From Schmidtea polychroa (taxonomy: Eukaryota), in NCBI GenBank assembly GCA_044892525.1, contig CM097885.1, positions 20,152,001-20,216,000 of the forward strand: 64,000 bases of DNA. The letters run 5' to 3'. This document shows positions 655-64,000 of the stretch, piece after piece. The translations under genes were made by a program, and so were the position numbers. Under the pieces are notes generated by a model. It was not told where the DNA came from. It saw only the letters and a program-made list of their open reading frames with translations, and ran no database searches. The first letter of the stretch is position 1; each line of letters begins with the position of its first letter.

Positions 655-1878
655 TTATACCAAAACAGTACGAGTAGATGTAATTTGAATTTCTTTTTCA
701 AAAACTCCATATACAATTACAGAAACAGCTTCAGTAAGTGAAGATGCGAATTTAATATCTAATCGCAAATTTCCACTTTGTGGTAACTGACTTTGATGAA
801 GATCAAAATCTGGTGCCAATACGAATGTAAAGAATGGATACTTGCTCTTAAAATCAGACATGGTGATACCACAATTCATATTTTTATTTAGATAACCCAT
901 ATTTCTAATAATTGATTGCATATAACTTGTACTATAATCATCATTCTCAAAATCTTGACTGTATTTTTCGCGATAATCACTTCCTTTACTTAAAGTTATG
1001 GACTTGACATTAAAGTGATCAAATATAGAAAATGATTCTGAAAACGATCCACTAAATCTTTTACTAGATTGAAATGCAACAAGAATAAAATTAGGTAGTC
1101 GTCTATCTCCAAATATTTGTTCTTTATAAAAAGAGGAAGAACCAATAGGTAATGAGAAATCAACAACTTCTTTGCTTCTTAAAGGATAAATTGCATTTTT
1201 TGTAGACAGACCAATTTGATGTCCTGCCAAAACCGATGGTTCAACACGAACTCTTCTAACCATTAATTTTGCGTCTAATAATAAAATTTTCGGTTCAATT
1301 TTCGCTCAAGTTAAACTAAGTGTTGGATTTGATCTTGTTAATTTAATTTGAACACTAACACCTGGTAGTAAATATTTAGGTTGATCAAAGAAATCAAATT
1401 GAAGTGGGGAACATAAAGAAAAGGATTTTAATTTTTCAATCCATGTTTTTCTCGTAAGATCTTTGTTAGTATACTCCATTCCACCTAAAGATGTTCGTTT
1501 AGTATCTCCGTCATAATTTATAAGTGTTTCAATTAATGCTTTGTGGGCAAATCTATCATTTGATCCTTCAACTTTGATTGAATTAAAAATTAATTCAACA
1601 TCTTTTAAAAGGGTTTGGAAGAAGAAATTATTTGGAATTACTTCTGATTCGCCTAAATTCTCACCAAAATTATTAACAACTTTCAATTGAATATATAACA
1701 AAGTATCATTCAAATCTAAATATTCAGTTTGCGATCCGTTTATGTAAAATTGAATCGAAGAAGAACCAGCATCTGTAATTGAATTTCTTGGGTATATATC
1801 TTCAAATGCTCCATGTTCAATCACTGCTTGGGGAGAAGGTCTATCAAAAAGACATAATTCTGATTTAGCACTAATCAT
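655..1878 (-). pseudogene. Major capsid protein (Polinton PY/hexon-like), ~407 codons, with one in-frame TGA at 1306-1308
   Basis: The N-terminus SELCLFDRPSPQAVIEHG and C-terminus GNLRLDIKFASSL..VIVYG are typical of Polinton MCP. The two ORFs share a frame: ...LSLT*AKIEPKFLLLDAKLMVRRV... Confidence 0.88.
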
Positions 1879-2273
1879 TTTTCAAAGATGGTACCATATC
1901 CTTTCATTCTTTTGTTTATATGTTTCTTCATAATTTTTCGGCGTTTAAGTATTCCACCTTTTTGTTCTTTATCATTTTTAAATACATCGGATACTTTATT
2001 AATTACTTCAGGTAAATGTTGCATCACTGCTGGTAATGATTCTTTAATTTCAGAAATTGCATTTGATTTTAAAGCAGGCAAGATATTTGCATTGTTATTT
2101 ATTACGTCATTAGCTGTTTTCATACCAAAATTTCCTATTCGTCTAAGAATTGGGAGTGCAAATCTACCTATTGTCTTCAACCAACCGGTTCCATATTGTT
2201 TACCAACAAAATATGGTAAATCACCACCCGATTGGTTACTACTATAAAAATGTATTATGTCAGGATTACTCAT
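1875..2273 (-). CDS. Small Gly-rich/amphipathic virion core protein (adintovirus pX/pVI-like) upstream of MCP
   Basis: Y..NQSGG..YFVGKQYGTGWLKTIGRFALPIL motif, a QKGG site and a basic C-terminus; lies between penton and MCP. Confidence 0.7.
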   Translation of the reverse strand: MSNPDIIHFYSSNQSGGDLPYFVGKQYGTGWLKTIGRFALPILRRIGNFGMKTANDVINNNANILPALKSNAISEIKESLPAVMQHLPEVINKVSDVFKNDKEQKGGILKRRKIMKKHINKRMKGYGTIFEK

Positions 2274-3282
2274 TTATTTTACGAAAATGTAATGTCAAGT
2301 ATGTTTTATCTTCTTTTCCAAATATATATTTTCCACTATCATCTCGTATATTGATTTCTATATTGTTTATATATGAAGACGATACAGGTAAGTACATTGG
2401 ATTCTTTTCAATTATTTGTACTAAATCATCTTTTTTATGTTTTTCCACCCAAATACATTTCAAAAGAGGGACCAATGTATCACCAACAATAATTGGTTCG
2501 ATAATATTTGTATAGATCATCAATTGTTGATTGCGTTGTAATACTTCAGGTTCTTTAAAACCAATAATAAGTTTGTCAGTATATGCTTCTTCTAATAATC
2601 CTAAACTATTGGCTAAAAATTTACTAAATTGAACTTTACTGACATCATCATCCATTACAATTTTAACGATTTTTCCTTTTTGAATATCAACAGATTTAAA
2701 TGGACGAGGATAAAAGGTTGATAGTTGATCATTTATTTGTGAAAGATCTGTTATGATATTTTCTTCGAATGTATCTGTAAACTCGACATCGTAATAATAT
2801 TGTATAGTTATTCGAATTGTATCAAACTTTATTTTTCGATTATTTGGAGGAATAGTGATTTTGTTCATTGTTTGCTTAAAAGTTATTTCTTTTTCTGAAA
2901 ATCCCAATTTTTGCGCTTCTTTAATACTATCGAATTCTACTTTAAAAGGAAAATATTTACAATTAATGTTCAATGTATTTCCATCAATATATATTAAATA
3001 AAATGGAGAGTCGTGACTGATTGTATATTCATTTTTTTCTTGGTTAAAGTAAAAGTATTCATAACTTGTATGTAATACACTTTTACTATATTTAACATTT
3101 GAATTGTTGTAAAAAGGAAAATAATTATACACAAAGGTAAAGTCCATGAGAGCTACTTCCCATTCACCATCCAAGTAAATAGGATTTTGAAATTCAACAT
3201 TAAATTTACCAGCTTCATTATTTGGATGAGTCTGAGGACAACTATTAGAAGGTAAATTCACATAAAAATCTTTTTTTATCAT
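2266..3282 (-). CDS. Minor capsid protein (penton), 338 aa
   Basis: FYVNLPSNS..THPNN..GKF...IYLDGEWEVAL N-terminus and IYTNIIEPIIVGD..VPLL..YLPV..INNIEINIRDDSG..LTLHF C-terminus. Confidence 0.88.
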   Translation of the reverse strand: MIKKDFYVNLPSNSCPQTHPNNEAGKFNVEFQNPIYLDGEWEVALMDFTFVYNYFPFYNNSNVKYSKSVLHTSYEYFYFNQEKNEYTISHDSPFYLIYIDGNTLNINCKYFPFKVEFDSIKEAQKLGFSEKEITFKQTMNKITIPPNNRKIKFDTIRITIQYYYDVEFTDTFEENIITDLSQINDQLSTFYPRPFKSVDIQKGKIVKIVMDDDVSKVQFSKFLANSLGLLEEAYTDKLIIGFKEPEVLQRNQQLMIYTNIIEPIIVGDTLVPLLKCIWVEKHKKDDLVQIIEKNPMYLPVSSSYINNIEINIRDDSGKYIFGKEDKTYLTLHFRKINE

Positions 3283-3405
3283 TTATTTTACGAAAATGTA
3301 ATGTCAAGTGTGTTTTTGTATCTCTACTAAATTTTATTAATTTTCCACTATCATCTCGTATATTGATTTCAATGTTGTTTATAGAAGAATTAGAAATTGG
3401 TACAA
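3245..3405 (-). pseudogene. C-terminal relic of a second penton paralog
   Basis: FVPISNSSINNIEINIRDDSGKLIKFSRDTKTHLTLHFRKIN aligns to the last ~40 aa of the intact penton. Confidence 0.8.
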
Positions 3406-4119
3406 AACATTTATCCAAGTTTTATTACCTTGATATACAAAATATTTTTTCAAACGTTCTCTTAAAGTTTGATTAAATCGTTCTACATGAGCAGCTTTGA
3501 ACTGAGAAAATACTGAGTAATGGTTTATTCCTTTGATAACCTCTTTAACTTTGCTGTTATAAAATTCTTTACCTAAATCATATATTTAAAAATTAATTAA
3601 TTAAATTTAATTACCTAAATCCGTTTGTAAATTAATAGGTTTAACATCTGCAAACATTTCTTTTATCGCATCAGCCATTTCATTTGCAGATTTAGTTTTT
3701 GTAGGAACAGCACGAGCATATCTATTAAAAACATCTATACAAGTCAGAATATATTTGTACCCCTTGTTAATTTTTGAAGAAGGTATCATTTCCATCAAAT
3801 CCATTTGCCATACATCATTGTTTCCAATTCTTTTGTATGGTCTTGTTGGAAAACGTTTCAACATTGGTTTATTTAAACTATATGCTAATTGATTAGATAA
3901 CCATTTCTGAGTTTCTTTCTTTGAATTATTCACTCGTTTTGTTAATTTTTCTACGCCACCAAAACCATCTGGATCTTTTGGGTTTGTCCATATTGTTTTT
4001 AACTTTTTCTCTATTGTTTTCACTTTTTTCACTTTTGTTTTCATATTTTTCACTTTTGTTTTTACTTTTGTTTTCATTTTTTCCACTTTTGTGTTGGTTT
4101 TGTGATACGTTTCCTTCAT
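3400..4119 (-). pseudogene. Retroviral-like (rve) integrase; exons 4119-3615 and 3572-~3400; 3'-truncated by deletion
   Basis: WQMDL, YILTCIDVFNRYA, and after removing the 42-nt intron QTDLGKEFYN...KAAHVERFNQTLRE (D,D,E intact). The reading ends at TWINVL, fused to the penton relic. Confidence 0.88.
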
Positions 4120-4188
4120 TATTACAACAAGTTGTCAAAATATTAAAATCTACAATATTTTTATTTGGTAATGAACTCTTGATACCTA

Positions 4189-4512
4189 TTAAGAACTTAA
4201 TGATGAGATTTCACTAATTGCAGATAAGACTATAGGAATTAGTCCACCCAAGAACCCTCCTTTTTTATATATTATCTTTCTCATTAGACGACGATTTTTT
4301 GTATCAACTAGAGATAAAAGTGATCTTTTATGTCTTTGCAATATTAATCTTTTAGCTTTAGTTATATTCACATTACCACGGACAACATTTATAATAACTT
4401 CAAGTAAATCATCAATAACAAATGATGGAAAAGACTGTAAAAATGATATTCGTTCCGAATTTGGTGCCTTTATTAAAGCATTAAAATATGGTAAACTCCG
4501 TTCAAATTTCAT
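4189..4512 (-). CDS. Conserved small Polinton/adintovirus protein with a C-terminal GGFL amphipathic tail (~107 aa from ATG 4512)
   Basis: N(V)VRGNV...LQRHKRSLLSL...KGGFLGGLIPIVLSAI pattern, lying between ATPase and integrase. Confidence 0.7.
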   Translation of the reverse strand: MKFERSLPYFNALIKAPNSERISFLQSFPSFVIDDLLEVIINVVRGNVNITKAKRLILQRHKRSLLSLVDTKNRRLMRKIIYKKGGFLGGLIPIVLSAISEISSLSS

Positions 4513-4541
4513 TATTATTATTAATTTACGCGACGGATTGT

Positions 4542-4682
4542 TTATAATTTGATCCACTTCTTGATTTGTTTCTTAGTTTTTGTACTTTTTGTACTTTTTG
4601 TTTTCTTTGTACGTTTTGTTTTCTTGGTAATTTTCTTCGAAACACTTGGAAGATTTTTAACAACTACTTTTTTAAATGACAT
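4542..4682 (-). CDS. 46-aa Lys/Thr-rich basic micro-ORF (possible DNA-condensing peptide or internally deleted gene)
   Basis: Manual translation MSFKKVVVKNLPSVSKKITKKTKRTKKTKSTKSTKTKKQIKKWIKL*; it fills the gap between flanking genes. Confidence 0.4.
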   Translation of the reverse strand: MSFKKVVVKNLPSVSKKITKKTKRTKKTKSTKSTKTKKQIKKWIKL

Positions 4683-4701
4683 GATTAATTTTATTTAGTT
4701 T

Positions 4702-5325
4702 TTAGTTTTGTTTATAAATCGTAACACCGTTTATATTAAAAATATCAGTTCTAATACGCATATCATCTGGACATTGTTGTGTAAAATCAAAAAATAAATA
4801 TCCATGAGGAATTTTTGTCGCATCTTGGAATGAATCAATCAAAAATTTTCTATTATTTGGATAAGCTTGTCTTGCAAGAAAATCTATTATTGTTTGATCT
4901 CTAGGATTTTTGAAAATAATTAAATATTGGACATTTAAATTACGTGTTCTATGACTTCCACCTTGATGAAAAAGATTTTGTGTAATGAAAATAACTGTAA
5001 CTCCACAATGTCTACTGATTTTTGTAAATAAATTATTAAAATCTTTTTCTTTATTTGCTTCCTGGTACAGATCATCGATAATAATAACATCACCTTGGCG
5101 TAATCTAGATGACCAATTTTTATCAAATCCTTTAATTATTGTCATTTTTAATTTACAGAAACTGTTTTGAGTCAATTCATGTTCTTCATCTGCACCTCGA
5201 TGCCAATATATTTTATTAAATTTAGATTTAAACATGTTTGATTGTAATAAATTACATACAAATAAAGTTTTCCCGCTTCCACTAGGTCCTACAATTTGAT
5301 ATACTGCGTCATTTCTTAATTCCAT
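4702..5325 (-). CDS. FtsK/A32-like DNA packaging ATPase
   Basis: Walker A GPSGSGKT, Walker B IIIDD, SRH and ITQNLF motifs, PHGYLFFD. Confidence 0.93.
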   Translation of the reverse strand: MELRNDAVYQIVGPSGSGKTLFVCNLLQSNMFKSKFNKIYWHRGADEEHELTQNSFCKLKMTIIKGFDKNWSSRLRQGDVIIIDDLYQEANKEKDFNNLFTKISRHCGVTVIFITQNLFHQGGSHRTRNLNVQYLIIFKNPRDQTIIDFLARQAYPNNRKFLIDSFQDATKIPHGYLFFDFTQQCPDDMRIRTDIFNINGVTIYKQN

Positions 5326-5375
5326 TTTTTAATTAAATTATTTTATTTAATTTGTTTATAATTACAATAAGTAGA

Positions 5376-5852
5376 ATGATCAGCAACATTAATTATAGAG
5401 GAAGATGTGTAGTAAATGGAATGAAGTTCCCATCAGGAAAACCTCAACATGTTGTGGACAGAAGTGGAAAATATCCAATTTTATTCTTCAAGAGCGGGAA
5501 ATGTAGGATAATGGGATGTAAGAAACCATTACAGGAAGGTGATCTCAAATATCAGATTCAAGATTTACAAATCCAATCAATTACATTAACGCTAGATATG
5601 GGTACATGCATTGATTTAAATGCATTGTCAAGGAAAACCGATAGTTACTACGAGCCTGAAATATTTCCAGCTTTACGTATTCTCAAGTATAACCCCCTAT
5701 GTGTAAATGTTTTTTCAAGTGGGAAAGTTGTTATATTAGGGATTAAAACATTTGATTATTTTAATCAAATTCAAGAAATTCAGAAATTCATTAAATCATT
5801 AACTATAAATATCACAACAAATGAAGAAATATTGGAATATTTATTAAGTTAA
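5376..5852 (+). CDS. TATA-binding protein (TBP)-like protein, intronless, element-borne
   Basis: Two TBP repeats: ILFFKSGKCRIMG and LQIQSI..LD....IDLNAL..SYYEPEIFPAL....P..VNVFSSGKVVILG. Confidence 0.85.
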   Translation: MISNINYRGRCVVNGMKFPSGKPQHVVDRSGKYPILFFKSGKCRIMGCKKPLQEGDLKYQIQDLQIQSITLTLDMGTCIDLNALSRKTDSYYEPEIFPALRILKYNPLCVNVFSSGKVVILGIKTFDYFNQIQEIQKFIKSLTINITTNEEILEYLLS

Positions 5853-12668: not shown

Positions 12669-48127
<35,459 letters not shown>

Positions 48128-50637
48128 TTTTATTAATAAAAAAGTATAGTCCTCATTTTTGTTGAATTAAATAATTAAATTGATTTCTAAATTATGATCC
48201 ATTTAAATACTTTCTAATATTTGGTTTTGCATAATCAATCTAAATTATTTCAACCTGAGCCTGGAAGAGGGGTTGAGGAAATGCAGGAAAATCTCACTCG
48301 GCACTCCTACACAATCAATTCAAAATTAATATTTACTTAGTAAATTAGTTCTAATTCGTCGAGGATAGCTCAGAATCAAGGAGATTCAACAATCTAATTC
48401 TAAATAGCGGTTTTGTACACTATAATCGTCGAGCATTCGAGCGGGCTCGCCGACCACCGTTATAAGGTTGGTCCCTATGTTGGTCCCTAGTCCACACTCT
48501 CTACTTGATTTCTCCTGAATTTTTCTCAGTTCCAACTTTGCTTCCATTACCTGGACTGAAGTGGTATCTAGTAGTTTAAATAAAGTTTCCTCGTCCACGC
48601 AGCTCACAGGACGTTTGTGTAACGACTCCTTGGTGTTGTATAGTAAGACCTTGGAACTACGGACAAACTAAAACTTTTGACGCAATTACCGATATTACTT
48701 AATATAAATTAACTTTTGCCTGTAAACTTTCCGTAGTTGCTTCACTTACCTGTAGGCGAGCGTGATGGAGAAACGCGGGTGCTTCTCACAAGTATACAAC
48801 AGAGGGTAGGGTGGGCCGCCATATATATATAGCTTTCGTCAACTGTGAACAAAAGAAGTTGCAGTGTTAACTGCGCAAATTAACTGCTCCACTTTTCGTA
48901 AGTAAAATATGTGTATGATTTTACTATCTTACAGGTTATGTGGTTGGCTGTGGACCGAAAAACATATCATAGGTGCTCATGATGATTTTATAACAACGAA
49001 GATTATTCCATTAAAAAATTAGACATCCAAAGCCTGACAAAAATAACTTCTTGCCTAAATATTTTCAAGGAATTCGCACAGTTTTAATAAATTTTTACAC
49101 AAAGATTTCATTAATTTCTGATAAAAATCGCTTCATTATATACCTTTTATATGTGCGACTTTGTGCTTGTACTGATGCAGTAAAATTAATTCAAATTCTT
49201 TTAATTTAATTTATTTCTGGATTCAATTTTTATCTATTTTAATGGCGATTTTTCGGTATTTAATATTTATTTCATTTTCTAATTTTTATATTTTATTTGA
49301 TTCTAATTAAATTCGGACCCATGATGGATATGGCCATTTTCTAGAATATTCTGTGTCATTTTGAATAGTTTTATTATATAATTTTTATTTCTTTTAATTG
49401 TTACGTTATTATTTTTTGATAAATTTGTTTTTCTGAATTTTTATAATTTATTTAGTTTTTATTAGTTTCCTCGCCGTGTTGGATTTCGCCATTTTCAAAG
49501 AATATTCTAGTGTTTTTTATCGTTTTAATTATAATTTTTATTCATAATTTATTCCTTTTATCATTTCTAATACAATTTTTTTTAGTTTCTATATTTTTTT
49601 TCTTTTATCGTCATGGATTCGAATCAGTCTATATCCTGTTAATTATTTGTGATATATATTTATATTTCATTCGTGAACTACTCTTGTTATTCCATTTACT
49701 ATACTTTTTTGTTCCATCATTTTGATGTTATGTAGTGTCTTTTATCGTGTTTACTTGATGTAAATTTTTGTGTTTGATTTTCATTTGGCCTAGGGCTCTA
49801 TCTGTGCTAGTCTTGATCAAGACTATGTGTTCTTTTTGAGCTGTAATGTATTGTAATTATTTATTTTTCTTGGTTTTGTTAACCGTATGTTATAAATGTA
49901 AATTACAATTCTTCACGTCGTACGTGGCGAAGGTTTTTATTTTATGTTTGTAAAAAAACAAACTATATAGTGATAATTTACCATAGTAAATTATCACTAT
50001 AGGAAAAAATTGAATTTAAAAAAAAATCGATAACTACAAATTAAAAAAATTATCAAAACAAGAAACAGTAAATTGGGAAATTTCAAGATCCAACAGTTAT
50101 AATTCGGAAGCTCTCCCAACGACTACTCAAAGGATTAGATCAAATACTCGTATAATCTCGAACCATACACTTACTTTTTCATATCCCATTATTATTCGAA
50201 CTTAAAAAGCTTACTCAAAGATTAATCACTGAAGAAAAGCTATATTGTCAGAAGTAACCTTATATTGGTTTTTAGTTAATAAAAATTTTAAAGTGTTATA
50301 ATAATTGTTGTATATTAATTTGATTTTCTTTTTTATTGTATTTTTCGCGTCAAAACAAAACACAGCCTGCACCCCGATTGTCCCGCCACATTTTTTTTAT
50401 CGGTGACTCTTTCGGGCTCATCAATTTTCCTGATTGCATTAAATAACGATAAAAATAACATTATTACTTAACATGAGCATTCTAAGCACAAATCATATTT
50501 ATGCTAGGTTAAAATCAGTTTTTAGCCAACAGTAGTTTAACAACACGAAGATACTATATGACACTTTTTGTAGAAATAATATCAGTAAAACAAGAGAATA
50601 TCTTTTTTTTTCAAAACAGATAGTTCCTTTTGGAAAT

Positions 50638-53965: not shown

Positions 53966-54569
53966 AATATATTACAACTATAATTGTGTTCTTTTCCAAT
54001 TAATCAAATTGACTTATATCGTGCTTAAAATCAACTTGGAACTAGCTATTAACACTATTAATTATAGCTATGCTGAGTTACGATAAGGATAAATTTCTCC
54101 TACACACCTACCCACACTCACACTCCCTTTAATTTTCAACAACTAGTTTCTCCTTGCTATTTCCCATCACAATATCTCATAATATTGTATACTTTTAAGT
54201 ACGCGTAGTAAGCGACGTTGGTCCCGTACGGTAGAGGGCGGCCGTCAGCAAAAATCGAGGATGACAAGTGGAAAAACCTTTCGTATCGGTATGTGTCTTA
54301 TCCTATCGACGCTTTTGCTGTAATTGCATTCCCCTTCATAACTATATCAACCACTAAACGCATGCCGCGAGCGACATTGGTACTGCGATTTAGCGGTTAG
54401 TTGACAGCACAACATGAACCCTATCATATTACCCTAACTCGCCTCTGGGTTCACGGGCTTATCAAGGGTCAAACTAGAGAAATCTAGATATGGTGGTGAG
54501 TCAGAGGCTCAGAGGAAAGGTTTGGAGGTGATCTGATGAGCACATCCAACAATTTTTTTTTAATGATAT

Positions 54570-54790
54570 GGTGGGTTACAGGTACTTTCAAAGTTTCTAC
54601 CTACTCCTGTTGTTTCCAGCGTAACCCAGGATACAATTTATAGCTGACCACTTGATACCCGTTGAGTAATCAACGTTGGTACTGTATCAAGGGTTTGGGT
54701 ACTAGCAAAAAGTGAGCATACTTAGCATACTATAATTGTCTAGCACCCACTGGGGTTCACGGACTGCCGATAGAAGGCCTATGTCCGGTT
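54570..54790 (-). ncRNA. Conserved structured RNA element, copy S1
   Basis: Multi-stem element with compensatory changes relative to 56277-56485. Confidence 0.7.
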
Positions 54791-54888
54791 TCTTTCAGCC
54801 CCCTTACGATAGTTAACGTTATGAAAAAATCGAAATGCCCAGATACGAATACACCAGTAAATATTTATTAGGGAAATAATATCTAAAG

Positions 54889-55350
54889 TTATAGTGTCGT
54901 GGATGATTTCTTCGGAGTAGGCTCTGACACCGCAGAATGACGTGTTAATTGGGCTTGGCTGTCTTGTCTTATTCTCGCCCGCGCCGCTTTACCCGGTCGG
55001 ATCTTCTTCCTCGGGATTTTCGGTGATGCGCACTCCTTCGGGTTGTGGAGCAGCTCACTCATGGGCCGGACTTTGGAGATGACATCTCGGTCGAGACCCT
55101 GTTGGAGTACTTTGATCTCCAGCTCCTTCACTCTCAGGCGGAGGGCCCGCAACTCAACCTGATCTTGGGCACTCTGGTGTTGCAGTTGAGTGATCAGTTT
55201 CATCCGCTTTTTCATCTCTGCTGGCGGGAACCAGGTACTCTCGAAATTCCGACAATGGGCCTTGATTCGTGCTAACCTGGCCCGGTATTCTTCTACTTGT
55301 TATTGCGCCCGCTCTCTATCTGCTCGCATTTCTTCCAGGAGTTTTAGCAC
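54889..55350 (-). pseudogene. Orphan coiled-coil protein B2 (paralog of 56675-57145), one in-frame stop
   Basis: KLLEEMRADRERAQ*Q..ESTWFPPAEMKK..Q.AQDQVELRALRL. Confidence 0.65.
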
Positions 55351-55907
55351 TAAATTAAGACAACATTAGTGATTTTCACCTCAGCATTGAGTGACGCGCA
55401 TTATTAATAATAAATGAATGTAAACTCCTCGTCGCAGCCATCCTCTCTGTACACCTAATCCTAGTTCTACTAATCTTACCAAAACCTTATAGGGCTGGTA
55501 ATAATAGTCAACGTTAAGGAAAATTGTAGTCAATTATAATAGTAGTCAACGTTAAAGAAAATTGTCAAAAATAAAACAAATACAAACAATTGAATTAGTA
55601 TTGACGACTAAAGACATAAACAAACGATTACAAGAATATGAACTACCAAGATAAAAAGAGTAATACTTCTCCTTGAATCAAGGACGTCTATCACTTTACA
55701 TAAATCGCCCTGTACATTGATCACAAAGCCATTTCATGCTATTTAGTGTTCGATTTCGAGTCATAGTCTTTGATCACAACGCGGATGTTAGGCGTGTCGC
55801 ACCACGCTGGCTTTCGGCCCGACAATCCCATTGGCTGAGCTGGCGGTTCTTCGTGGGCGTCCACGTTTTCTTGGCCGGTCCGGTCCTCGCGGAGGACTTC
55901 TTGGATA

Positions 55908-56290
55908 TTACAGGCCACGGCGAAGGGCTGCGGTCCGCTTAGGATGACATTGAGCTCGAGCGTAACCGTCAATGTCCTCGTGCTCACCGGCTAGGGTTGC
56001 TGTTTCGAGTCTGTGCAATCGGTCCACCGCTTCCTTCGCATTGTCGAATGCGTCGCCCAAAGCCAATGATGTATAATTGATATACGGCTCCACCTTCGGG
56101 ATCACTGGGACTACATTCTGGTAGGTCCAATCGTGGATTTTATACCATATCCACCGGGACCTTAGGCGAGCGATTTCTGCGTCCTTCCGTAATCGTACGG
56201 CTTCGTCCGTCTCCTTGTGAGTTGGTTCGAGGCTCAAATCGGAGGATGAAGGACCGGCCTGCACATTCCATGCTCTTGGTGGGTTACTGG
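55908..56290 (-). CDS. Orphan protein A2 (paralog of 57355-57720); no in-frame ATG near the conserved part
   Basis: ARLRSRWIWYKIHDW versus TRLRTRYIWHRIHDW. Confidence 0.55.
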
Positions 56291-56485
56291 TGGTTGAATG
56301 ATTGAGTGCTGTTACCAGCGTAACCCAAAATACAACATTGTTTTTCCGCTTGGTACCCGTTGAGTGATCAACGTTGGTACTGTACCAAGGGTTGAGTACT
56401 CGCAAAAAGTGAGCGCATCAAAGCACTATAGTTGTCGAGTACTCCGTGGGTTCACGGACTACCGATAGAAGGTGTGTGTCCGATT
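56277..56485 (-). ncRNA. Conserved structured RNA element, copy S2
   Basis: Same stems as S1, with compensatory changes. Confidence 0.7.
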
Positions 56486-56674
56486 TCTCAGGTCCCTTTA
56501 TCAAAATTGTTTTCCCAACCTTATGCACAAACTCTCATTTCCCAGGCAATCATAAACTGTACTAGTCCTTATTTTATCACTACAAAACGTGCAGTATTTT
56601 AACAAGGAACATATTATTTGAAGACTACCACAATACATAAAAATACTACAAAACACCTAAAACCGAATATAAGT

Positions 56675-57145
56675 TCAAACAGGCTTATTGGTAGGACTGG
56701 CCAATTCCGTCGCAGCTGCTAGTGACGAATTTGCTTGTCGCTCGTATTCGGCCAGTCTAGCTTTCTTCAATTTTTCCCGAATATTTCGGCCTAACCGCTT
56801 TCTTTTGGGTTTCTCTTTCGCGGCCGGGGGGTATATTGCTGCTAGTTCCACGGTCAACGGCCGGATTTGGCTTATGGCGGCTCCGTGAACTACTTGTTCA
56901 TTTCGCTCGGTTTCTAGCGCGCGGAGCTGGAGCTTCAGTGCCCGGATCTCCATCTGATCCTGCGCGGCTTGAGTCTGCAGTTGAAGGACCTGCGCCACCT
57001 TCTTTTTCATATCCTCGGGACTAAACCAGGTGCTTTCTAGTTCCCGGCACCGTCCCTTGAGCTTGTCTACTCGTATGCGGAGCTCCTCGGACTGTTTTTG
57101 AGCTTCTGCCCTATCTCTTCGCAGATTTTCCAATAGTTTGAACAC
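56675..57145 (-). CDS. Orphan coiled-coil protein B1 with a basic NLS-like patch
   Basis: GC-rich 156-codon ORF with protein-level conservation to B2; begins right after a TAG acceptor. Confidence 0.7.
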   Translation of the reverse strand: MFKLLENLRRDRAEAQKQSEELRIRVDKLKGRCRELESTWFSPEDMKKKVAQVLQLQTQAAQDQMEIRALKLQLRALETERNEQVVHGAAISQIRPLTVELAAIYPPAAKEKPKRKRLGRNIREKLKKARLAEYERQANSSLAAATELASPTNKPV

Positions 57146-57354
57146 TAGATAAATTCAACGATTATATTCTTGCAGCGTACTATTCATTCAATTATAAAAT
57201 AAAATCAATATTATAAATAGACATGGTTTCGGGTGTTAAGCACGCAATACACAAGATGATTTATTAAAAGGACTGAAATAATTATCACTAAAATCAAAGT
57301 TTAATAAAGTCACAACTGGATGATAATTTGCAAAAACAAAATTTTGACGATGAG

Positions 57355-57720
57355 TCAGTTCAGTCGCTTGCGAGGCCTTCCCCTCTTCCGCGGGGTTGCC
57401 TCGGCCTCTTCTAGGTCCTCCACGGTTTTTCCCTCTTTTTCTGCTTGGATTTGCAGCTCGATCTTCTTGAGTCGCATCTGAGCTGCCTCTACCTCGATGG
57501 CCGCTCGGTCGCGGGCCTCTTGCAAAAAATCGTTTGTGGGCTCTGTTTTTACCCACGCCGGAGCGTCCGGCTCCGGCCCACTCCTGATTACTGGGCCAAA
57601 GTTGTCGAGGTCCAAACCCCGATTCCAATCATGGATACGGTGCCATATGTACCGTGTACGGAGTCTGGTAAGCAGCTGTCGGTCGGCTTCTTCGTGGCTA
57701 TCGCTGTCAGAGTAGGACAT
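57355..57720 (-). CDS. Orphan protein A1 with a C-terminal AT-hook
   Basis: ATG-started 121 aa, PRKRGRPRKR; acceptor TTTTGTAG 2 nt before the ATG. Confidence 0.7.
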   Translation of the reverse strand: MSYSDSDSHEEADRQLLTRLRTRYIWHRIHDWNRGLDLDNFGPVIRSGPEPDAPAWVKTEPTNDFLQEARDRAAIEVEAAQMRLKKIELQIQAEKEGKTVEDLEEAEATPRKRGRPRKRLN

Positions 57721-58239
57721 TTCTACAAAATAATAATCAAGCCCCTCTATACTGATTGAGATACGACGTCAACCACAAGATTTTGTTGACCCTTTTTCCC
57801 TTTAAAAAAAAAATATTTTATTTTAAGACTAACATCTATAAGCTTAGGAGTAGTGGAATAAGATTTCCTACTTTATCAAAACAAACACAAAAAAAAAAAG
57901 AATTTCGTCAAAATTCGTTTGTTTAAATTAATCATTTCCATTCAAAATTTTGTTTACCACCGAGTGGTAATCTTAATTACTATTTATAAATTTTAATTTA
58001 TATGTTAATAAAATGTGAATTTTTTTTTTAGATCGTCATTTTTAGGCCACTAAATTCGGGCACGCTGGGGCGACAGGTACTAGCAACGAACTAAGCTCTT
58101 CGTCTGCTTACCTTTCCTTCGGTTGTGCTCGTTATGAGTGGTTTGCTCTGCATACAAGTAATTTATTTAATTTGCTAATTTCTAAATTTCCAGGTGATCG
58201 ATATCGGATTGGGATATCGATTTTTTGTAGTTAACTGTA

Positions 58240-58580
58240 ATAATACCAATAATAATAACAATGAAATAACGATACTAATAATAATAATAATAATGATAAT
58301 AATAATATTAATAATAGCAATGATAGTAATAATAATAAGAATAATAATAAATTTTAATAATGGTAATAATAATAATACTAATAATAATAATAACAAGAAT
58401 AATAATAAATTTTTATAATGGTACTGATAATGATGATAAATATAATAATGCTAATTATGATATTCATAATAATGATAACAATAATATAATAATAATAAGA
58501 ATAAGAATAATAATACTAATAGTAATGATAATGTTGATACTGCTAATAGTAATAACAAGGGAAATGATCAGGATTATGAT
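58240..58580. repeat. Degenerate (AAT)n low-complexity tract
   Basis: Read directly. Confidence 0.85.
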
Positions 58581-59880
58581 AACTATAATTTTACAATCCC
58601 ATGTTTTAGAATTATAAATTTATGTTTTATAATTTATACTTTGATAATTTTCGATTTATAATTTAAAATTTTTCAATTTAGGGATTTACAATCTTGTAAT
58701 TTATAATTATAATTTCATATTTTGAAATTTATACATTCATATTTTATAAGTTATAATTGCTTAACTTATAATTTCTAAGTTTATAATCTGAAATTTATAC
58801 TTTTGTAATTCGTATTTTCGTACTTTATAATTTGAAATTTTTAGTCGACGGAATATACTTCTTACAACTTCCTTTCTATGATCAACATTGTTTTCCGCAG
58901 TACTTACAGATTTCCTGGTCCTATTTGTGGATTAAACTTCAGGGTTCTAGCGCGTCTATCGCCTATTACTATCTCTGATCAGACTTTCTCCATTAACACT
59001 TTACATTTTCAGGATCGACGTGATTTGTACCTAGCTATCGTAATTATTTATAACTTATAGTTTTATGGTTAACAACAAGAATATTACAACTAAGAGCCTA
59101 CACATTTACAAACCTTTTAAAGTGGGAACTAGATTTAAAATGTCTATCTTTACTCGGAATCAGCATATCTAGGCCAAGTTATACCTGTACGTATGCCGAA
59201 TATCTCTCTTATTTCTATTACTTTATCAAAGATCCTTACTACAAAATCTAGTTCGGCATATGTCTAAGCATAATTGAAATTACCATTATGAATCAACTAG
59301 CTACATTAATGTGAGTGTAGAATTGTGTAATTTTAGGTACGAGCTCTACTCAAATTAGAACCTTAGTGTAGAGTTATTGTTCAGGATTTTAAGTGTTGAG
59401 TTTAATTGTATATTACGCAATGAGTCGGGAAGAATATTGCTTCCATGGCCCCACTGTGACCACGTCCACAAACCTTAGTGTTGTGTGCTAAGTCAACCAT
59501 TTACGGCTGACCTTAAATAAATACGAAGAGTCAGGCGGAGGGTTTCCTCGACCTAACTCCATGGCAGGACCATGAAGTAGTTCGACCTCCGGCTGACCCG
59601 AACAAAAAGAAATCATATAATAAATATCACTATAATAATGATAATGCGTGTCTGCATGTCCTGTTAATAACGATTTTAATAAATTGGATGCAGGACTGAA
59701 CAACGACGCAGGAATACCAGTACGCCGTTGATCACTCATACATCGCAAAAAAAAAATTTAAGCAAAAATAAATTTAAAATACCATCTATATAATTAAACA
59801 ATTAATATACAAATAAAGATCAATGCTTACTATCGATTTTGGAAATTTCGTCACAAAAATTTGGCATAAAAGTGATTGAT

Positions 59881-60523
59881 TGTGACTGAAACGTGTCAGT
59901 ATATATACCTATTTAGTACACGTGTATGTATTGATGCATTAAAACAAACTCGAATTCTTTTTATTCCAGAATTTTCTATTTTACGATTTTGCTATTTTTA
60001 ATGGCAATTTTTTGTGCCATAATTTTTGTTTTTATTTTTATATTTTTATTTTTTAATTATTTTTCATTAATTTTACGTCCATGATGGATTTGGAACGGTT
60101 CCAGAACATTCTATTTTACTTTTAATTTAATTTTTATTTTAACTGATGTTTTTATGAATTCTTTTTGAGATTTTTTTATTTTTAATACTAATTCATTTAT
60201 TTTCCTTAACTTTTGTTGTTCTAGATGACTTTTGTGATGGTCATCGCCATTTTATAGAATGTTCTGGGTTTTTCTGGAATTTTTTACTATTTTTATCGTC
60301 TTTTCAGTTATTCGAGTTTGCTTTTGGTAATTCTATGTTTGTTTGATTATTTTTGAGTTAGGTTTTTGCATCACTTCTTGCTTCTGTATAATTTTATTTA
60401 ATTTCTTTGTTTATGTTTTTGTTGCTTTCTCCTTTAGTTAATATTGTTTATTTGGTGTGTATTTTAATATTTAACTATACTTTTTGCTTTTTACATGTTG
60501 TGTACCTGCACGTTTCAGTCACA
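59881..60523. mobile_element. 643-bp T-rich element with 15-bp terminal inverted repeats (TG...CA); solo LTR or MITE
   Basis: TGTGACTGAAACGTG / CACGTTTCAGTCACA; internal similarity to ~49160-49520; no clear TSD. Confidence 0.55.
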
Positions 60524-60921
60524 ATTAGTAGTTTGGGTCTAGAAATCAGTTCTAGCCCAACATAAAACACTCGGGGGCCCATAAAATTGCGACCCGCAAT
60601 TTAAATCCAAAGATGAATAAGATTAATTTTCAGAATACTTGCACTATATTACAAGTGCCTACATGCAAATTGGGTCCACGAGCTACAGGGTCGTGACCTC
60701 AATACCCACATACATAAAAATGCTACTATTACACTACATTTTACAGATGGGTTGAAAGATGAAGGAAAAGAACGACCGATGTCGGCCCACATAAAAATAA
60801 CATTATCATGCTCAAGAATCAGTGTCATTAATCGTAGTCTCAGTCTTTGAAATCCATTGTTCGATCAGGATGATTTATCGTTTATAATGTCGTGAAATGT
60901 TTTTACTGTCATGATGTCACA

Positions 60922-61908
60922 CTAATAGAATTCTGTTGTTCGGGATCTCGTCTCGATGACGGCTCTGGTTTCGATGTTTGGGGAAGATTTGAAGTATCTT
61001 GGTTGGTTCGTTGTTTGGATTAGCTGTTCTTCCATTGGGATATGAATATTCTTTGATTGTTCTTTTAGTTTGAGGGTTTTGTTTCTTGCTTTACTGGAAT
61101 TGGGTTTGAGTGCAATCAGGCTCAGTACGGTAATGTTTATCATTAGGCTTGCCGCTAATAGGATCAATATTGTGAGAGATTCAGACTCTCTCGGTTCTAT
61201 TACTTTGGGTTTGTTCATAATTTCTTTTAATTGGGTTGTATCCGCCGTTTCTGATTTTTCGGGCTTATTGAATTTGTTTTCTTCTGAGGTGACAACTTTC
61301 TTTATTGCCTCAAGGGTTTTAATCATCTTCTCGGAGTTCGTTGGGTTTTTGTTTATGGTAGTTAGGATTTCCCTTGTCATTTCTTTCAAGGTTTTCGTTA
61401 CCTCATTTTTAATGCTGGGTTCCTCTTTGATGATGGAAGTTATTTTTCCTTTCATTTCCTCCAAAGATTTTACTACTGTTTCGCAATTGCTTGATCGTCC
61501 ATAGGCGGTTGCTGTTACCTGTTGTTTTATTTCCTCTAATATTATTACCATCATTCTCATTGCGGCTGGATCTGTTTGGGATTCTCTCTTTGATTTCTGA
61601 CTTTGACATTGTTTGGCTAATGTTGCTATCTGGGTTCTGATAACTTTCATTTCTTGTTCTAGCATTGTTTTTATTGTCTGAGCCATTTGCACTTCCGTCG
61701 AACTTTCAGTTGTTTGTGGACATTGCGAACATTGTAACTTGATTTGTTCGCATTCCTCATTGGGTTTTTCGCAGATCGATTTAAAGCTACTACATGTACT
61801 ATCTTCTCTGCGATATGGGTATTCTTTCTGGCATCTGATCATTGATTCTTCTGCTTGCAGGATTCTTGGCATTGTCATTATAATCATCATCACGATTAGG
61901 CTTCTCAT
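60922..61908 (-). CDS. Orphan type I membrane protein (signal peptide, Cys-rich head, helical repeats, TM, tail)
   Basis: Intact 328-aa intronless ORF; hydrophobic N-terminus and LTILILLAASLMINITVLSLIAL. Confidence 0.75.
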   Translation of the reverse strand: MRSLIVMMIIMTMPRILQAEESMIRCQKEYPYRREDSTCSSFKSICEKPNEECEQIKLQCSQCPQTTESSTEVQMAQTIKTMLEQEMKVIRTQIATLAKQCQSQKSKRESQTDPAAMRMMVIILEEIKQQVTATAYGRSSNCETVVKSLEEMKGKITSIIKEEPSIKNEVTKTLKEMTREILTTINKNPTNSEKMIKTLEAIKKVVTSEENKFNKPEKSETADTTQLKEIMNKPKVIEPRESESLTILILLAASLMINITVLSLIALKPNSSKARNKTLKLKEQSKNIHIPMEEQLIQTTNQPRYFKSSPNIETRAVIETRSRTTEFY

Positions 61909-61984
61909 CTTTACATATACATATACGTTAATAATAATTACTTGGCTTTATTTACAATTTATTTACACGGTTATTTTGTCTCAT

Positions 61985-62770
61985 TTATTGGGAGCCACCG
62001 ACCTCATCCCTTAATTTTACGGGAGGTTCGGGTGCTCGTCTTTTGCTCAACTCGTTCATTCTTATTATTTCGAGTTGCGTTGCTATCAACTGTCTCTTTA
62101 ATTCTGGTATTTCTTGTAATTGCTTCTCTTTACTTTTCCATTTTCTCTGCTTGATGGTTATTGCCGTCTGCAATGCTTGCATGCTTCGTCGTTTTTGATT
62201 TAAGATTCTCCGGTAATTTTCTTTCAACTTCCATTGTTTTTCTGTTTCCTCTCTTTGTTCCTTGATCTCTTCCTTGAGTTTTACATTTCTCTTCTCGACT
62301 TTTTTACTTTCTCGCACTCTTGTTTTTGCATAAGCATATTGTGCTTCTAACTGCTCGATATAGACTTGGTCGATATTCACAATCTTTTTCAACTTCCTTG
62401 TTTCTGATTTCCAATAATCTTCGATTACTGCCTGAGCTCTCAACTCTACTATCTCTTGTCTCAGGTTTTTATTTTCTGTCTCTTTTCGTTTCGATTCCTT
62501 TATTTCCCTCAAAATTTCTTGCTTGACAGTGTTTATTAATCGTCTTGATTGAACAATATGCTGCCTCAATCTCGTAATCTCTACATTTTGATTTGCAATC
62601 TTTAATTTGAACAACTTCTTGCTGACTCTCCATTTATTGCTATAATATTTCATCGGTTCTTGTTTGATTGGTATCATATCCTGGTTTTGTTCAGGTTGGT
62701 CGTTTGACTTTCCTTCGTTACTCGTTGATTCTCTTTCTTTTAAATAATTCATATCTACAAAAATATACAT
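61985..62770 (-). CDS. Orphan basic coiled-coil protein
   Basis: Intact 261-aa K/E/R/Q-rich ORF. Confidence 0.7.
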   Translation of the reverse strand: MYIFVDMNYLKERESTSNEGKSNDQPEQNQDMIPIKQEPMKYYSNKWRVSKKLFKLKIANQNVEITRLRQHIVQSRRLINTVKQEILREIKESKRKETENKNLRQEIVELRAQAVIEDYWKSETRKLKKIVNIDQVYIEQLEAQYAYAKTRVRESKKVEKRNVKLKEEIKEQREETEKQWKLKENYRRILNQKRRSMQALQTAITIKQRKWKSKEKQLQEIPELKRQLIATQLEIIRMNELSKRRAPEPPVKLRDEVGGSQ

Positions 62771-62835
62771 ATCATATTTCCTTTTGTCTTCTTTTTATTC
62801 TGAATTTTTTGGTTTTGTAATTTTTATTTGGTTTT

Positions 62836-62837
<2 letters not shown>

Positions 62838-62901
<64 letters not shown>
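62838..62901 (-). repeat. 64-nt poly(A) tract (minus strand)
   Basis: Read directly. Confidence 0.95.
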
Positions 62902-62933
62902 CATTCTTATTTACAGGCAACATCTCCCTTCGA

Positions 62934-63998
62934 CTAAATCCATGTTGCGTTATTTTGTTCGTTATTTTCATCGAAGCCTTCATCTGTGGTGACTTCGGCA
63001 GGCTGTGGCACTTGCAACGGGAACGGGTAGAGTGGCATTAATAATATTGGTGGTTGTCTCCTTAACCGATCTATTTCCTCTCGTAGTTCCGTTGAGATGT
63101 TTATTTCCTCATCCAATAAAAACGTTAATCTACCTTCGTTTTCTATCCTTTCGTTTAATTCCTCTTCCAATCGTTGGGTTCTTTCGAGCGTTTTTAGTTT
63201 TTCAATTTCCGCTCTCAAATTTGCTTCATTTTCTTCGAAGCATCGTTTTATTATCTCGGTTTCCTGTTTGGTTTGTTGAATTGTCTTGTCGCACTCCTCT
63301 CTATATTTCGCATTAAGCTCAATCTGGTGCTTCCAATTCACATCCCTTTGGGTGTACATACCTTTATATCCGTTCATCTCTTGATTGGCTTCTTCCACTT
63401 CGGTTTGTAATTGTCGGATCTGTCGATCTTGGTCTGTCAATTGTTGTTCCCATCTCTTTTCCTGGAATTCATACCTTCTTATTTCTCGAGTCTGTTTCTT
63501 TATGATTCTCTGTCTACCGTCGCTGATCCGCGTCTTGATTCTATGTTCTCTACTCAATCGGCTGATCTCATCTTTTTGGTTTTCTATCGTTTCCCATATT
63601 TTAAATTCGTCTCTTTCCATCAGTTTTATTGGTAACTGTCTTAACTCCTCTTTGGTCTCTTTCCAATTCTTTTTCCATTTTCGGGCTTGATGCTTGAGAC
63701 ACTTTTCGGTTTCCTCAGTTTTTTGCTGTCGTTTTCTCCACTCTACTTCCTCTTCTTCTCGCTGTGCAGCTCTTGTTTCGTAAAATTCTTGGTCTGCTTT
63801 TCGTAATCGCAGTTGTTCCTTGCTACTGATTTTCCAATAGAGTACTTGAGTTTGACTTCCTAGGTATTTATACTTCCATTTCTGGGCTTGTATCTTTATT
63901 TGTGTGTTAATTCGCTCTAATACGTTATCTCTAACAATTGGTTCTCTATGCGGTGTTCTCCTCCCTTGCCCTCTGACTTCGTTTAGGGTCTTTTTGCA
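62934..63998 (-). CDS. Orphan coiled-coil protein, 5'-partial (frame open to the window edge, >350 aa)
   Basis: Manual translation upstream of 63620 has no stop (CKKTLNEVRG...QARKWKKNWKETKEELRQLPIKLMERD...). Confidence 0.75.
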   Translation of the reverse strand, partial: CKKTLNEVRGQGRRTPHREPIVRDNVLERINTQIKIQAQKWKYKYLGSQTQVLYWKISSKEQLRLRKADQEFYETRAAQREEEEVEWRKRQQKTEETEKCLKHQARKWKKNWKETKEELRQLPIKLMERDEFKIWETIENQKDEISRLSREHRIKTRISDGRQRIIKKQTREIRRYEFQEKRWEQQLTDQDRQIRQLQTEVEEANQEMNGYKGMYTQRDVNWKHQIELNAKYREECDKTIQQTKQETEIIKRCFEENEANLRAEIEKLKTLERTQRLEEELNERIENEGRLTFLLDEEINISTELREEIDRLRRQPPILLMPLYPFPLQVPQPAEVTTDEGFDENNEQNNATWI

Positions 63999-64000
63999 TC

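Follow-up and report, generated by a model that had tools for sequence, protein, structure and literature searches.

Predicted leader-spliced accessory genes in the nested long terminal repeats of Burro-type giant Gypsy elements of a planarian

The minus strand of a 64,000-nucleotide (nt) stretch of the Schmidtea polychroa genome (assembly GCA_044892525.1, contig CM097885.1, positions 20,152,001 to 20,216,000; hereafter the window, whose numbering is used throughout and extended past its end where needed) carries, between positions 54,889 and 57,720, two genes, A and B, each present twice and each pair followed by an RNA motif, which raises the question of what kind of locus this is and what its genes might do. 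The first-pass annotation had read the order A1-B1-[RNA]-A2-B2-[RNA] as the tandem duplication of an orphan gene pair. The order itself is as reported there, but the two units are ends of the long terminal repeats (LTRs) of two Burro lineages: the apparent gene pair is the LTR of one giant element nested in the LTR of a sister element, not a tandem duplication, and the genes lie in the LTRs of Burro-type elements rather than forming a host pair. Furthermore, we propose, with a probability of about one half, that A and B are selected accessory genes of these nested LTRs that would be expressed by splicing from a leader exon, with B a predicted Rev-like regulator and A a predicted AT-hook DNA-binding factor.

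A nested insertion of two giant LTRs

Self-comparison of the extended region reveals a direct repeat of 4286 nt, 100% identical between positions 60562-56277 and extended coordinates 78074-73789. The window copy (56277..60562, minus strand) is the 3′ LTR of an element, X, whose 5′ partner lies 17.5 kb off, beyond the window; the element has TG...CA termini and is flanked by a 4-bp target-site duplication, AGAG, one copy of which occupies 56273..56276 (minus strand) while the second adjoins the 5′ LTR beyond the window. The insertion target of X is a second LTR, Y, of a sister lineage, with its 3′ part at 54569..56276 (minus strand) and its 5′ parts past X, beyond the window. LTR Y extends from extended coordinates 88273 to 54569, and because the target duplication TATC flanks this full span at both ends, it is a solo LTR. 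An uninterrupted relative, L035, runs across the X insertion point and is 95-97% identical on either side of X. The A1-B1-RNA unit is accordingly the distal part of the X 3′ LTR, with A2-B2-RNA supplied by the solo LTR Y. In the AT-rich, 781-Mb genome with its four large contigs, positions 58100-56277 are matched 39 more times at 98-100% identity (40 scored of 4453 candidates), mostly same-strand pairs about 30 kb apart, and A2-B2-RNA forms a separate repeat lineage with 57 matches (40 scored of 3042 candidates). Likewise, the best 150 of 5801 candidates in a search with B1 are 97-100% identical repeats, mostly paired at the same distance of about 30 kb.

Two full-length siblings of X measure 35 kb, with LTRs of 4.8 kb and target duplications ACAG and CTAT, and comparison with them reveals a 12.4-kb internal deletion in X, pol included. 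Domains were called in a full-length sibling that is 96-99% identical to X over their common parts, and Pfam assigns to it a single frame of 4791 amino acids (aa) with CCHC, MATH, viral fusion glycoprotein, protease, reverse transcriptase, RNase H, integrase and ankyrin domains, in which the protease-reverse transcriptase-RNase H-integrase order is present; RING, TRAF and BIR-RING domains are encoded as separate ORFs (open reading frames). We assign the element to the Burro/GYPSM1 type by its published feature description, because it exceeds 30 kb, encodes a giant polyprotein with in-frame env and ankyrin, and carries BIR and TRAF cargo as described in the text of that source (PMC6431247). The LTRs of X are 100% identical even though its pol is deleted, which points to a defective copy mobilised very recently. 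The X LTR is also about 500 nt shorter than the sibling LTRs and mosaic in its identity to them, at 92% in the first 1.3 kb and 99% distally.

The priming geometry of X and its siblings is unusual. At a distance of 8 nt past the 5′ LTR there is a primer site, TGGGGGCTCAGCCGGGAT, with a match to the 3′ terminus of genomic tRNA-Pro(TGG), and no purine run that could serve as a polypurine tract occurs within 40 nt ahead of the 3′ LTR. A source of the primer tRNA is a tandem tRNA-Pro(TGG) array at G000:C1:130.90-130.95 Mb with a period of 475 nt, the pattern having 2190 matches genome-wide.

Genes A and B and their predicted expression

Gene A1 (57355..57720, minus strand) encodes 121 aa that comprise a Trp-rich helix, a second helix and a C-terminal AT-hook, RKRGRPR (57390-57370, minus strand), and a splice-acceptor AG stands 2 nt ahead of its ATG. 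The B1 exon (56675..57144, minus strand) runs for 155 codons past its acceptor and encodes long coiled-coil helices and a Lys/Arg-rich tail; it has no ATG at its own start but begins at the splice acceptor, as YAG/TG, where the slash marks the junction. The second pair is damaged: the A2 remainder (55788..56276, minus strand) is truncated near its start by the insertion of X and interrupted by a premature stop at 55910-55908, with its AT-hook beyond at 55871-55851, and the B2 exon (54889..55349, minus strand), which also starts as YAG/TG, has a premature stop at 55302-55300. The 5′ truncation, both stops and the ATG-less start of B had escaped the first-pass annotation, whose following descriptive claims hold up: the A1 AT-hook and the basic patches in B are present, the copies are paralogous with the motifs it had quoted (A1 and A2 27% identical, E 3e-9; B1 and B2 38%, E 1e-25), and the four genes stand out as GC-rich islands, at 52-57% against 30% window-wide.

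Its suggestion of purifying selection is likewise borne out. The estimate uses 24 of 60 ORFs for A and 37 of 81 for B, those that are intact and non-redundant, with broken copies left out. The median ratio of nonsynonymous to synonymous substitution (dN/dS) in pairs at 50-90% identity is 0.24-0.29 for A and 0.09-0.14 for B, compared to 1.2-2.6 in shifted frames of the same alignments, all of which contain stops. Of 40 LTR stretches located by their terminal motif, 34 contain A and 38 contain B, on the same strand, and four have B without A. Judging from these sequence comparisons, A and B are almost certainly real, selected protein genes inside the LTR. The AT-hook, R-[KR]-RGRP-R, is invariant in 19 of 19 aligned A members, RGRP having been an inclusion criterion, and the Pfam AT_hook model recognizes 5 of the 19 at E<=0.1. 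AlphaFold models B as three long helices (residues 2-38, 42-103 and 119-147) with a basic stretch at about 111-130 (predicted local distance difference test score, pLDDT, 84; predicted template-modelling score, pTM, 0.36), and A as a pair of helices followed by a disordered tail that bears the AT-hook (pLDDT 69, pTM 0.31).

Homology searches place neither protein in a known family. None of 96 candidates was retained for B1, and a profile search with B yielded one of 3975 candidates, a 77% relative of Y-type B. This relative is a 157-aa protein on a 638-nt contig, whose called start falls in the region that corresponds to the intron here. The corresponding search with A retained none of 7996 candidates, and among 1.84 billion proteins A recovered only three AT-hook-repeat proteins. 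Searches of the PDB with the two proteins gave best E values of 0.07 and 0.13, Foldseek returned nothing at E<=0.001 for either, and an Atlas search matched B to generic coiled coils at low recognition and gave no usable match for A. No host homologue of A or B emerged from these searches, and B is not assigned to a known export-factor family because it has no homology to such factors in them.

How might a gene without an initiation codon be expressed? The A-rich first 680 nt or so of the X LTR (59881..60562, minus strand), which we read as U3 (the unique 3′ region of the LTR), are about 90% identical among 13 LTRs, against roughly 50-70% downstream. At their end stand a TATA-like box and, following it, a short palindrome (59885..59907, minus strand) with a compensatory variant, ACTGA..TCAGT to ACCGA..TCGGT; immediately past this block, identity among the 13 full LTRs falls to about 0.5. 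There follows a predicted leader exon 1 (59831..59880, minus strand, start approximate) with its donor GT at 59830. This donor, some 50 nt past the TATA block, is aligned in 13 of 13 LTRs, and in 23 of 23 distinct variants the leader ends in A before GT[AG]AG or GTAGGT, with variable letters in the preceding two positions; the usual exon letter before a donor is G. At the other end of the intron, B starts as YAG/TG in all 40 starts found by a search that required TG but not AG (43 entries, the remaining three lacking B), and an AG lies 1-2 nt ahead of the ATG of A in 28 of 30 cases, four further entries having no usable ATG. Given the invariant final A of the leader and the initial TG of B, splicing would create an ATG for B. 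An in-frame open upstream ATG exists in 13 of 23 leaders, and the other ten would rely on the junction codon. On this pattern of conserved signals, we consider that A and B are very probably expressed by splicing from the leader exon.

Concerning transcripts, no run on record as RNA is listed as containing this stretch. In Logan contigs of three possible RNA runs and one other run, one run spans A, B and the RNA motif minus the gap ahead of A and another covers that gap without the genes, and neither was used as evidence. The deletions present in four short LTRs do not fall at the exon-1 donor. A further reading, in which a spliced leader with a terminal AUG is joined to B in trans, was discarded, as it would place B out of frame. 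The longest match to exon 1 at the intron tail, among 24 LTR entries, is 11 nt. A second donor-like site, AAG/GTAAGC, with an acceptor-like site 36 nt upstream, occurs at 58111-58147 (minus strand) and could delimit a mini-exon; it is not among the donors conserved across the 13 LTRs.

RNA structures, cassette exchange and competing explanations

In the mechanism we propose, the transcript would begin near LTR position ~690, just past the TATA box, which would place A, B and both RNA structures in R/U5, the repeated and unique 5′ regions of the LTR. The ~50-nt leader exon made from this LTR promoter would be spliced to the acceptor of either A or B, the last A of the leader and the first TG of B forming the start codon of the latter, and the genomic RNA would have to retain the leader intron for the LTR to be rebuilt. 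A Rev-like role is proposed for B because an element with a strong leader intron must still export and package its unspliced RNA: B, translated from spliced RNA, might use its coiled coil and basic tail to bind a cognate intronic hairpin and so promote retention or export of the unspliced form. A, in turn, may act in transcription or in tethering by binding AT-rich DNA of the LTR or of the host.

A candidate target is a conserved hairpin block at 59433..59608 (minus strand; main stem ~59599-59528), inside the predicted intron and about 230 nt behind the donor, with a fold z of -3.56 and two-sided changes in 2 of 45 pairs. Of 34 LTRs screened, 23 are complete and 15 remain after sister collapse; in all 15 the sequence class of the hairpin, of which there are two, agrees with the class of B. 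Hairpin distances track those of B at a Spearman coefficient of 0.79, or 0.76 as a partial correlation given A (Mantel p 2e-4). The corresponding values for A are 0.32 and -0.08, though A lies between the hairpin and B, and four nearly saturated non-coding segments between the hairpin and A track the hairpin at -0.06 to 0.34. The hairpin-B linkage may accordingly reflect a cognate RNA-protein pair or a clonal frame with A swapped in, and the sequence data are compatible with both.

The terminal RNA motif takes up the last ~235 nt of the X LTR, at its U5 end (56277..56512, minus strand), and recurs in LTR Y (54569..54817, minus strand), with fold z values of -3.49 and -2.55, respectively; in 5′ LTRs it adjoins the primer binding site. 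In the alignment, 98% of cells are paired and the covariation score exceeds all 500 shuffles, and the count of six two-sided pairs, among related sequences, is matched by 37 of 500 shuffles. On these measures the motif is a genuine RNA structure, and it has no credible match in Rfam. It equals the first 680 nt of the LTR in conservation and is retained in LTRs of a W type without A or B, and it most likely represents a replication or packaging element rather than part of the gene pair. The idea that the hairpin pairs with the terminal RNA in a class-specific manner was considered and discarded (-84.3 vs -83.2 kcal/mol).

The W type is represented past the window end by a 5648-nt solo LTR (G000:C1:20231982-20237629, plus strand) that sits in LTR Y in inverted orientation and is flanked by the target duplication ATAT. 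This LTR retains the LTR start, the hairpin block and the terminal RNA but lacks A and B. At least 40 matches to its distal part, itself included, occur at 93-100% identity, and it may represent a lineage that relies on B supplied in trans.

The same anatomy could serve a different function, in which A and B act as anti-silencing or transactivating factors, either Tat/Tas-like or as suppressors of silencing by PIWI-interacting RNAs and histone H3 lysine 9 trimethylation, and turn over rapidly through conflict with the host. We regard this as possible but doubtful. The dN/dS values of both genes are low rather than elevated, and the hairpin linked to B sits in a predicted intron behind the donor, in the place of the Rev response element and not of the trans-activation response element at which Tat acts. 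It would nonetheless account for the retention of the AT-hook by A in both deep lineages and for a cassette far more diverged than the element body, and Burro is in fact repressed by SMEDWI-2 (PMC8532177).

That divergence is the main argument for placing A and B downstream of the start site. The first 680 nt of the LTR match the 3′ internal region in identity and A and B do not. In one other element compared with a sibling, internal DNA is 94% identical on both sides, and the proportion of synonymous differences (pS) is 0.10-0.17 in six internal genes against 0.75-0.78 in A and B, with the fall in identity at LTR position ~700; the trend is present but weaker in a second element (0.00-0.18 internally, 0.25-0.26 in A and B). 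A Y-type 5′ LTR, too, is only 39% identical to the sibling in B, as opposed to 93% in its first part and 82% in the leader. The block behind the TATA box thus looks like a swappable cassette from its pattern of identity. Recombinant LTRs have been documented for Onsen (PMC5668417), and this mosaic would result if RNAs packaged together underwent strand transfer at a short R, which would shift the R/U5 cassette between element bodies.

Alternatively, A and B could lie in a very long U3 and be expressed from the 3′ LTR, as are MMTV (mouse mammary tumour virus) sag and HIV nef, with the main promoter ahead of the terminal RNA and the upstream TATA box and donor forming a second promoter. The best-known LTR-overlapping genes do lie in U3, and the terminal RNA is as strongly conserved as the LTR start. 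This arrangement is nevertheless unlikely: the region ahead of the terminal RNA has no conserved block that resembles a promoter (identity 0.37 at LTR 3901-4000), and the tracking of the 3′ internal region by the first 680 nt, but not by A and B, is what a U3/R border at ~690 would produce.

The exchange of A and B among LTRs also bears on the idea, raised in the first-pass annotation, of a co-evolving nuclear two-component module of a mobile element. Selected, probably nuclear proteins of a mobile element they appear to be; a strict co-evolving heteromer or toxin-antidote pair is distinctly unlikely. The two genes are adjacent in 34 of the 40 stretches, both are helical, and their distances remain positively correlated (partial 0.36), but two types of A and three of B occur in all six combinations among 24 LTRs, some stretches carry B alone, and the trees of U3, A and B, built from 9 of the 13 LTRs (a near-duplicate sibling and three with damaged A were left out), are mutually rejected (A vs B: approximately unbiased test p 0.001 and <1e-50). 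Nor do A, B and the RNA always co-occur, the test that the annotation had proposed, given their frequencies in the 40 stretches and the presence of the RNA in at least 40 distal W-type copies without either gene. As for locally duplicated host genes or captured host exons, host-type splice signals are their one attraction, and they are highly implausible given that every copy examined sits in an LTR, as the repeats retrieved with B1 illustrate, that no host homologue was found and that the target duplications refute them at this locus.

Several observations weigh against leader-spliced accessory genes with a Rev-like B. Among the listed matches of Logan contigs to 54560-58225, a query that leaves out exon 1 and whose runs are of guessed RNA status, there is no splice joint, and genomic searches for intron-less copies returned no match for either the exon 1-B or the exon 1-A join. 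An AATAAA lies behind the stop codon in no more than 9 of the 24 A genes and 18 of the 37 B genes, and the selection estimates omit broken copies. W-type LTRs keep the hairpin and terminal RNA without either gene. The gap behind B and the terminal RNA also track the hairpin, at rho 0.60-0.63, so that a clonal frame into which A was swapped would explain part of the hairpin-B linkage. Finally, B has no sequence or fold likeness to Rev, Rex, Rem or the Cer1 protein CERV in Pfam, the PDB, a viral fold library or a protein collection. In a tentative extension of our model, the Burro LTR would be a self-contained, exchangeable regulatory operon that comprises promoter, leader, two alternatively spliced regulators and an RNA target, with ancient allelic cassettes of matched hairpin-B specificity exchanged on a young body common to the elements; solo LTRs, in their hundreds, could then supply nuclear regulators in trans and sort elements into compatibility classes.

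Elsewhere in the window, the 3′ internal region of X (60563..64000, minus strand) contains accessory ORFs of 341 aa, with hydrophobic N- and C-terminal stretches, and of 269 aa and 533 aa, charged and coiled-coil-like. Outside LTR Y, a third and far more diverged stretch at 54257-54560 (minus strand) has the motifs CCGTGAACCC and CAGTACCAA and short 70-84% matches elsewhere but lacks A and B, and is perhaps an older related LTR end. From their motifs, we take the ORFs at 655-5852 (capsid-like, integrase, ATPase) to be a Polinton/Maverick-like fragment and the ORF at 5337-5852 to be TATA-binding protein-like; the features at 18228-22508, 27880-29240, 32845-37061 and 47456-48166 are presumably two ordinary Gypsy elements, a piggyBac-like transposase and a Na/Ca-exchanger-like exon.

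Comparison with known systems

In the usual view, an LTR is a control region without coding function and a solo LTR is dead. Known parallels come from retroviruses, where Rev, Rex and Rem are small basic regulators made from spliced RNA with a cognate structured RNA, and MMTV sag and HIV nef overlap an LTR. Those genes are internal or located in U3, whereas A and B appear to lie downstream of the start site, so that a solo Burro LTR would still hold promoter, leader, genes and RNA elements.

Burro/GYPSM1 itself is described as a planarian giant Gypsy-like LTR element with a polyprotein frame of 4873 aa (PMC6431247). The present elements resemble it in their 35-kb length, ~4.8-kb LTRs, gag-MATH-env-protease-reverse transcriptase-RNase H-integrase-ankyrin polyprotein and BIR and TRAF ORFs, and differ in a frame of 4791 aa; the text section of that review names no LTR genes, leader splicing or cassette exchange, although its figure 2A may draw LTR ORFs (PMC6431247). 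Within the portions covered of four sources (PMC6431247, PMC8532177, PMC11410931, PMC13238120), there is no account of LTR genes in Burro; the supplements of the primary description may draw such ORFs.

A functional parallel is CERV of C. elegans Cer1, a nuclear coiled-coil-containing protein translated from a spliced mRNA and needed for export of unspliced genomic RNA (PMC10309623). Cer1, too, is a Gypsy-type element (PMC10309623), and CERV has the role that we propose, by analogy, for B; B differs in being ~155 aa long and encoded within the LTR, and no CERV homology turned up, no direct comparison having been run. A start codon created by splicing is known from Drosophila gypsy env, where the junction is AT/G and joins gag to env in the internal region, as opposed to the predicted A/TG of B wholly within the LTR (PMC2585583). 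The extra ORFs of plant LTR retrotransposons such as Grande and Retand likewise encode orphan accessory proteins, some of them nuclear, that members of a family have in common, but they are internal and often antisense, and the portion covered of the source names none inside an LTR (PMC7264820).

The present analysis connects the LTR genes to complete elements and tests them for selection, and it describes a predicted start codon made by splicing, the exchange of the cassette and the linkage between hairpin and B. One LTR motif alone has 756 exact matches in the genome, and if the LTR genes are expressed, a planarian genome would contain at least several hundred possible sources of two nuclear proteins. 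Cassette exchange would also mean that LTR-based family classification and dating may mislead for these elements. If our model is correct, Burro would be a complex-retrovirus-like element with a Rev-like switch.

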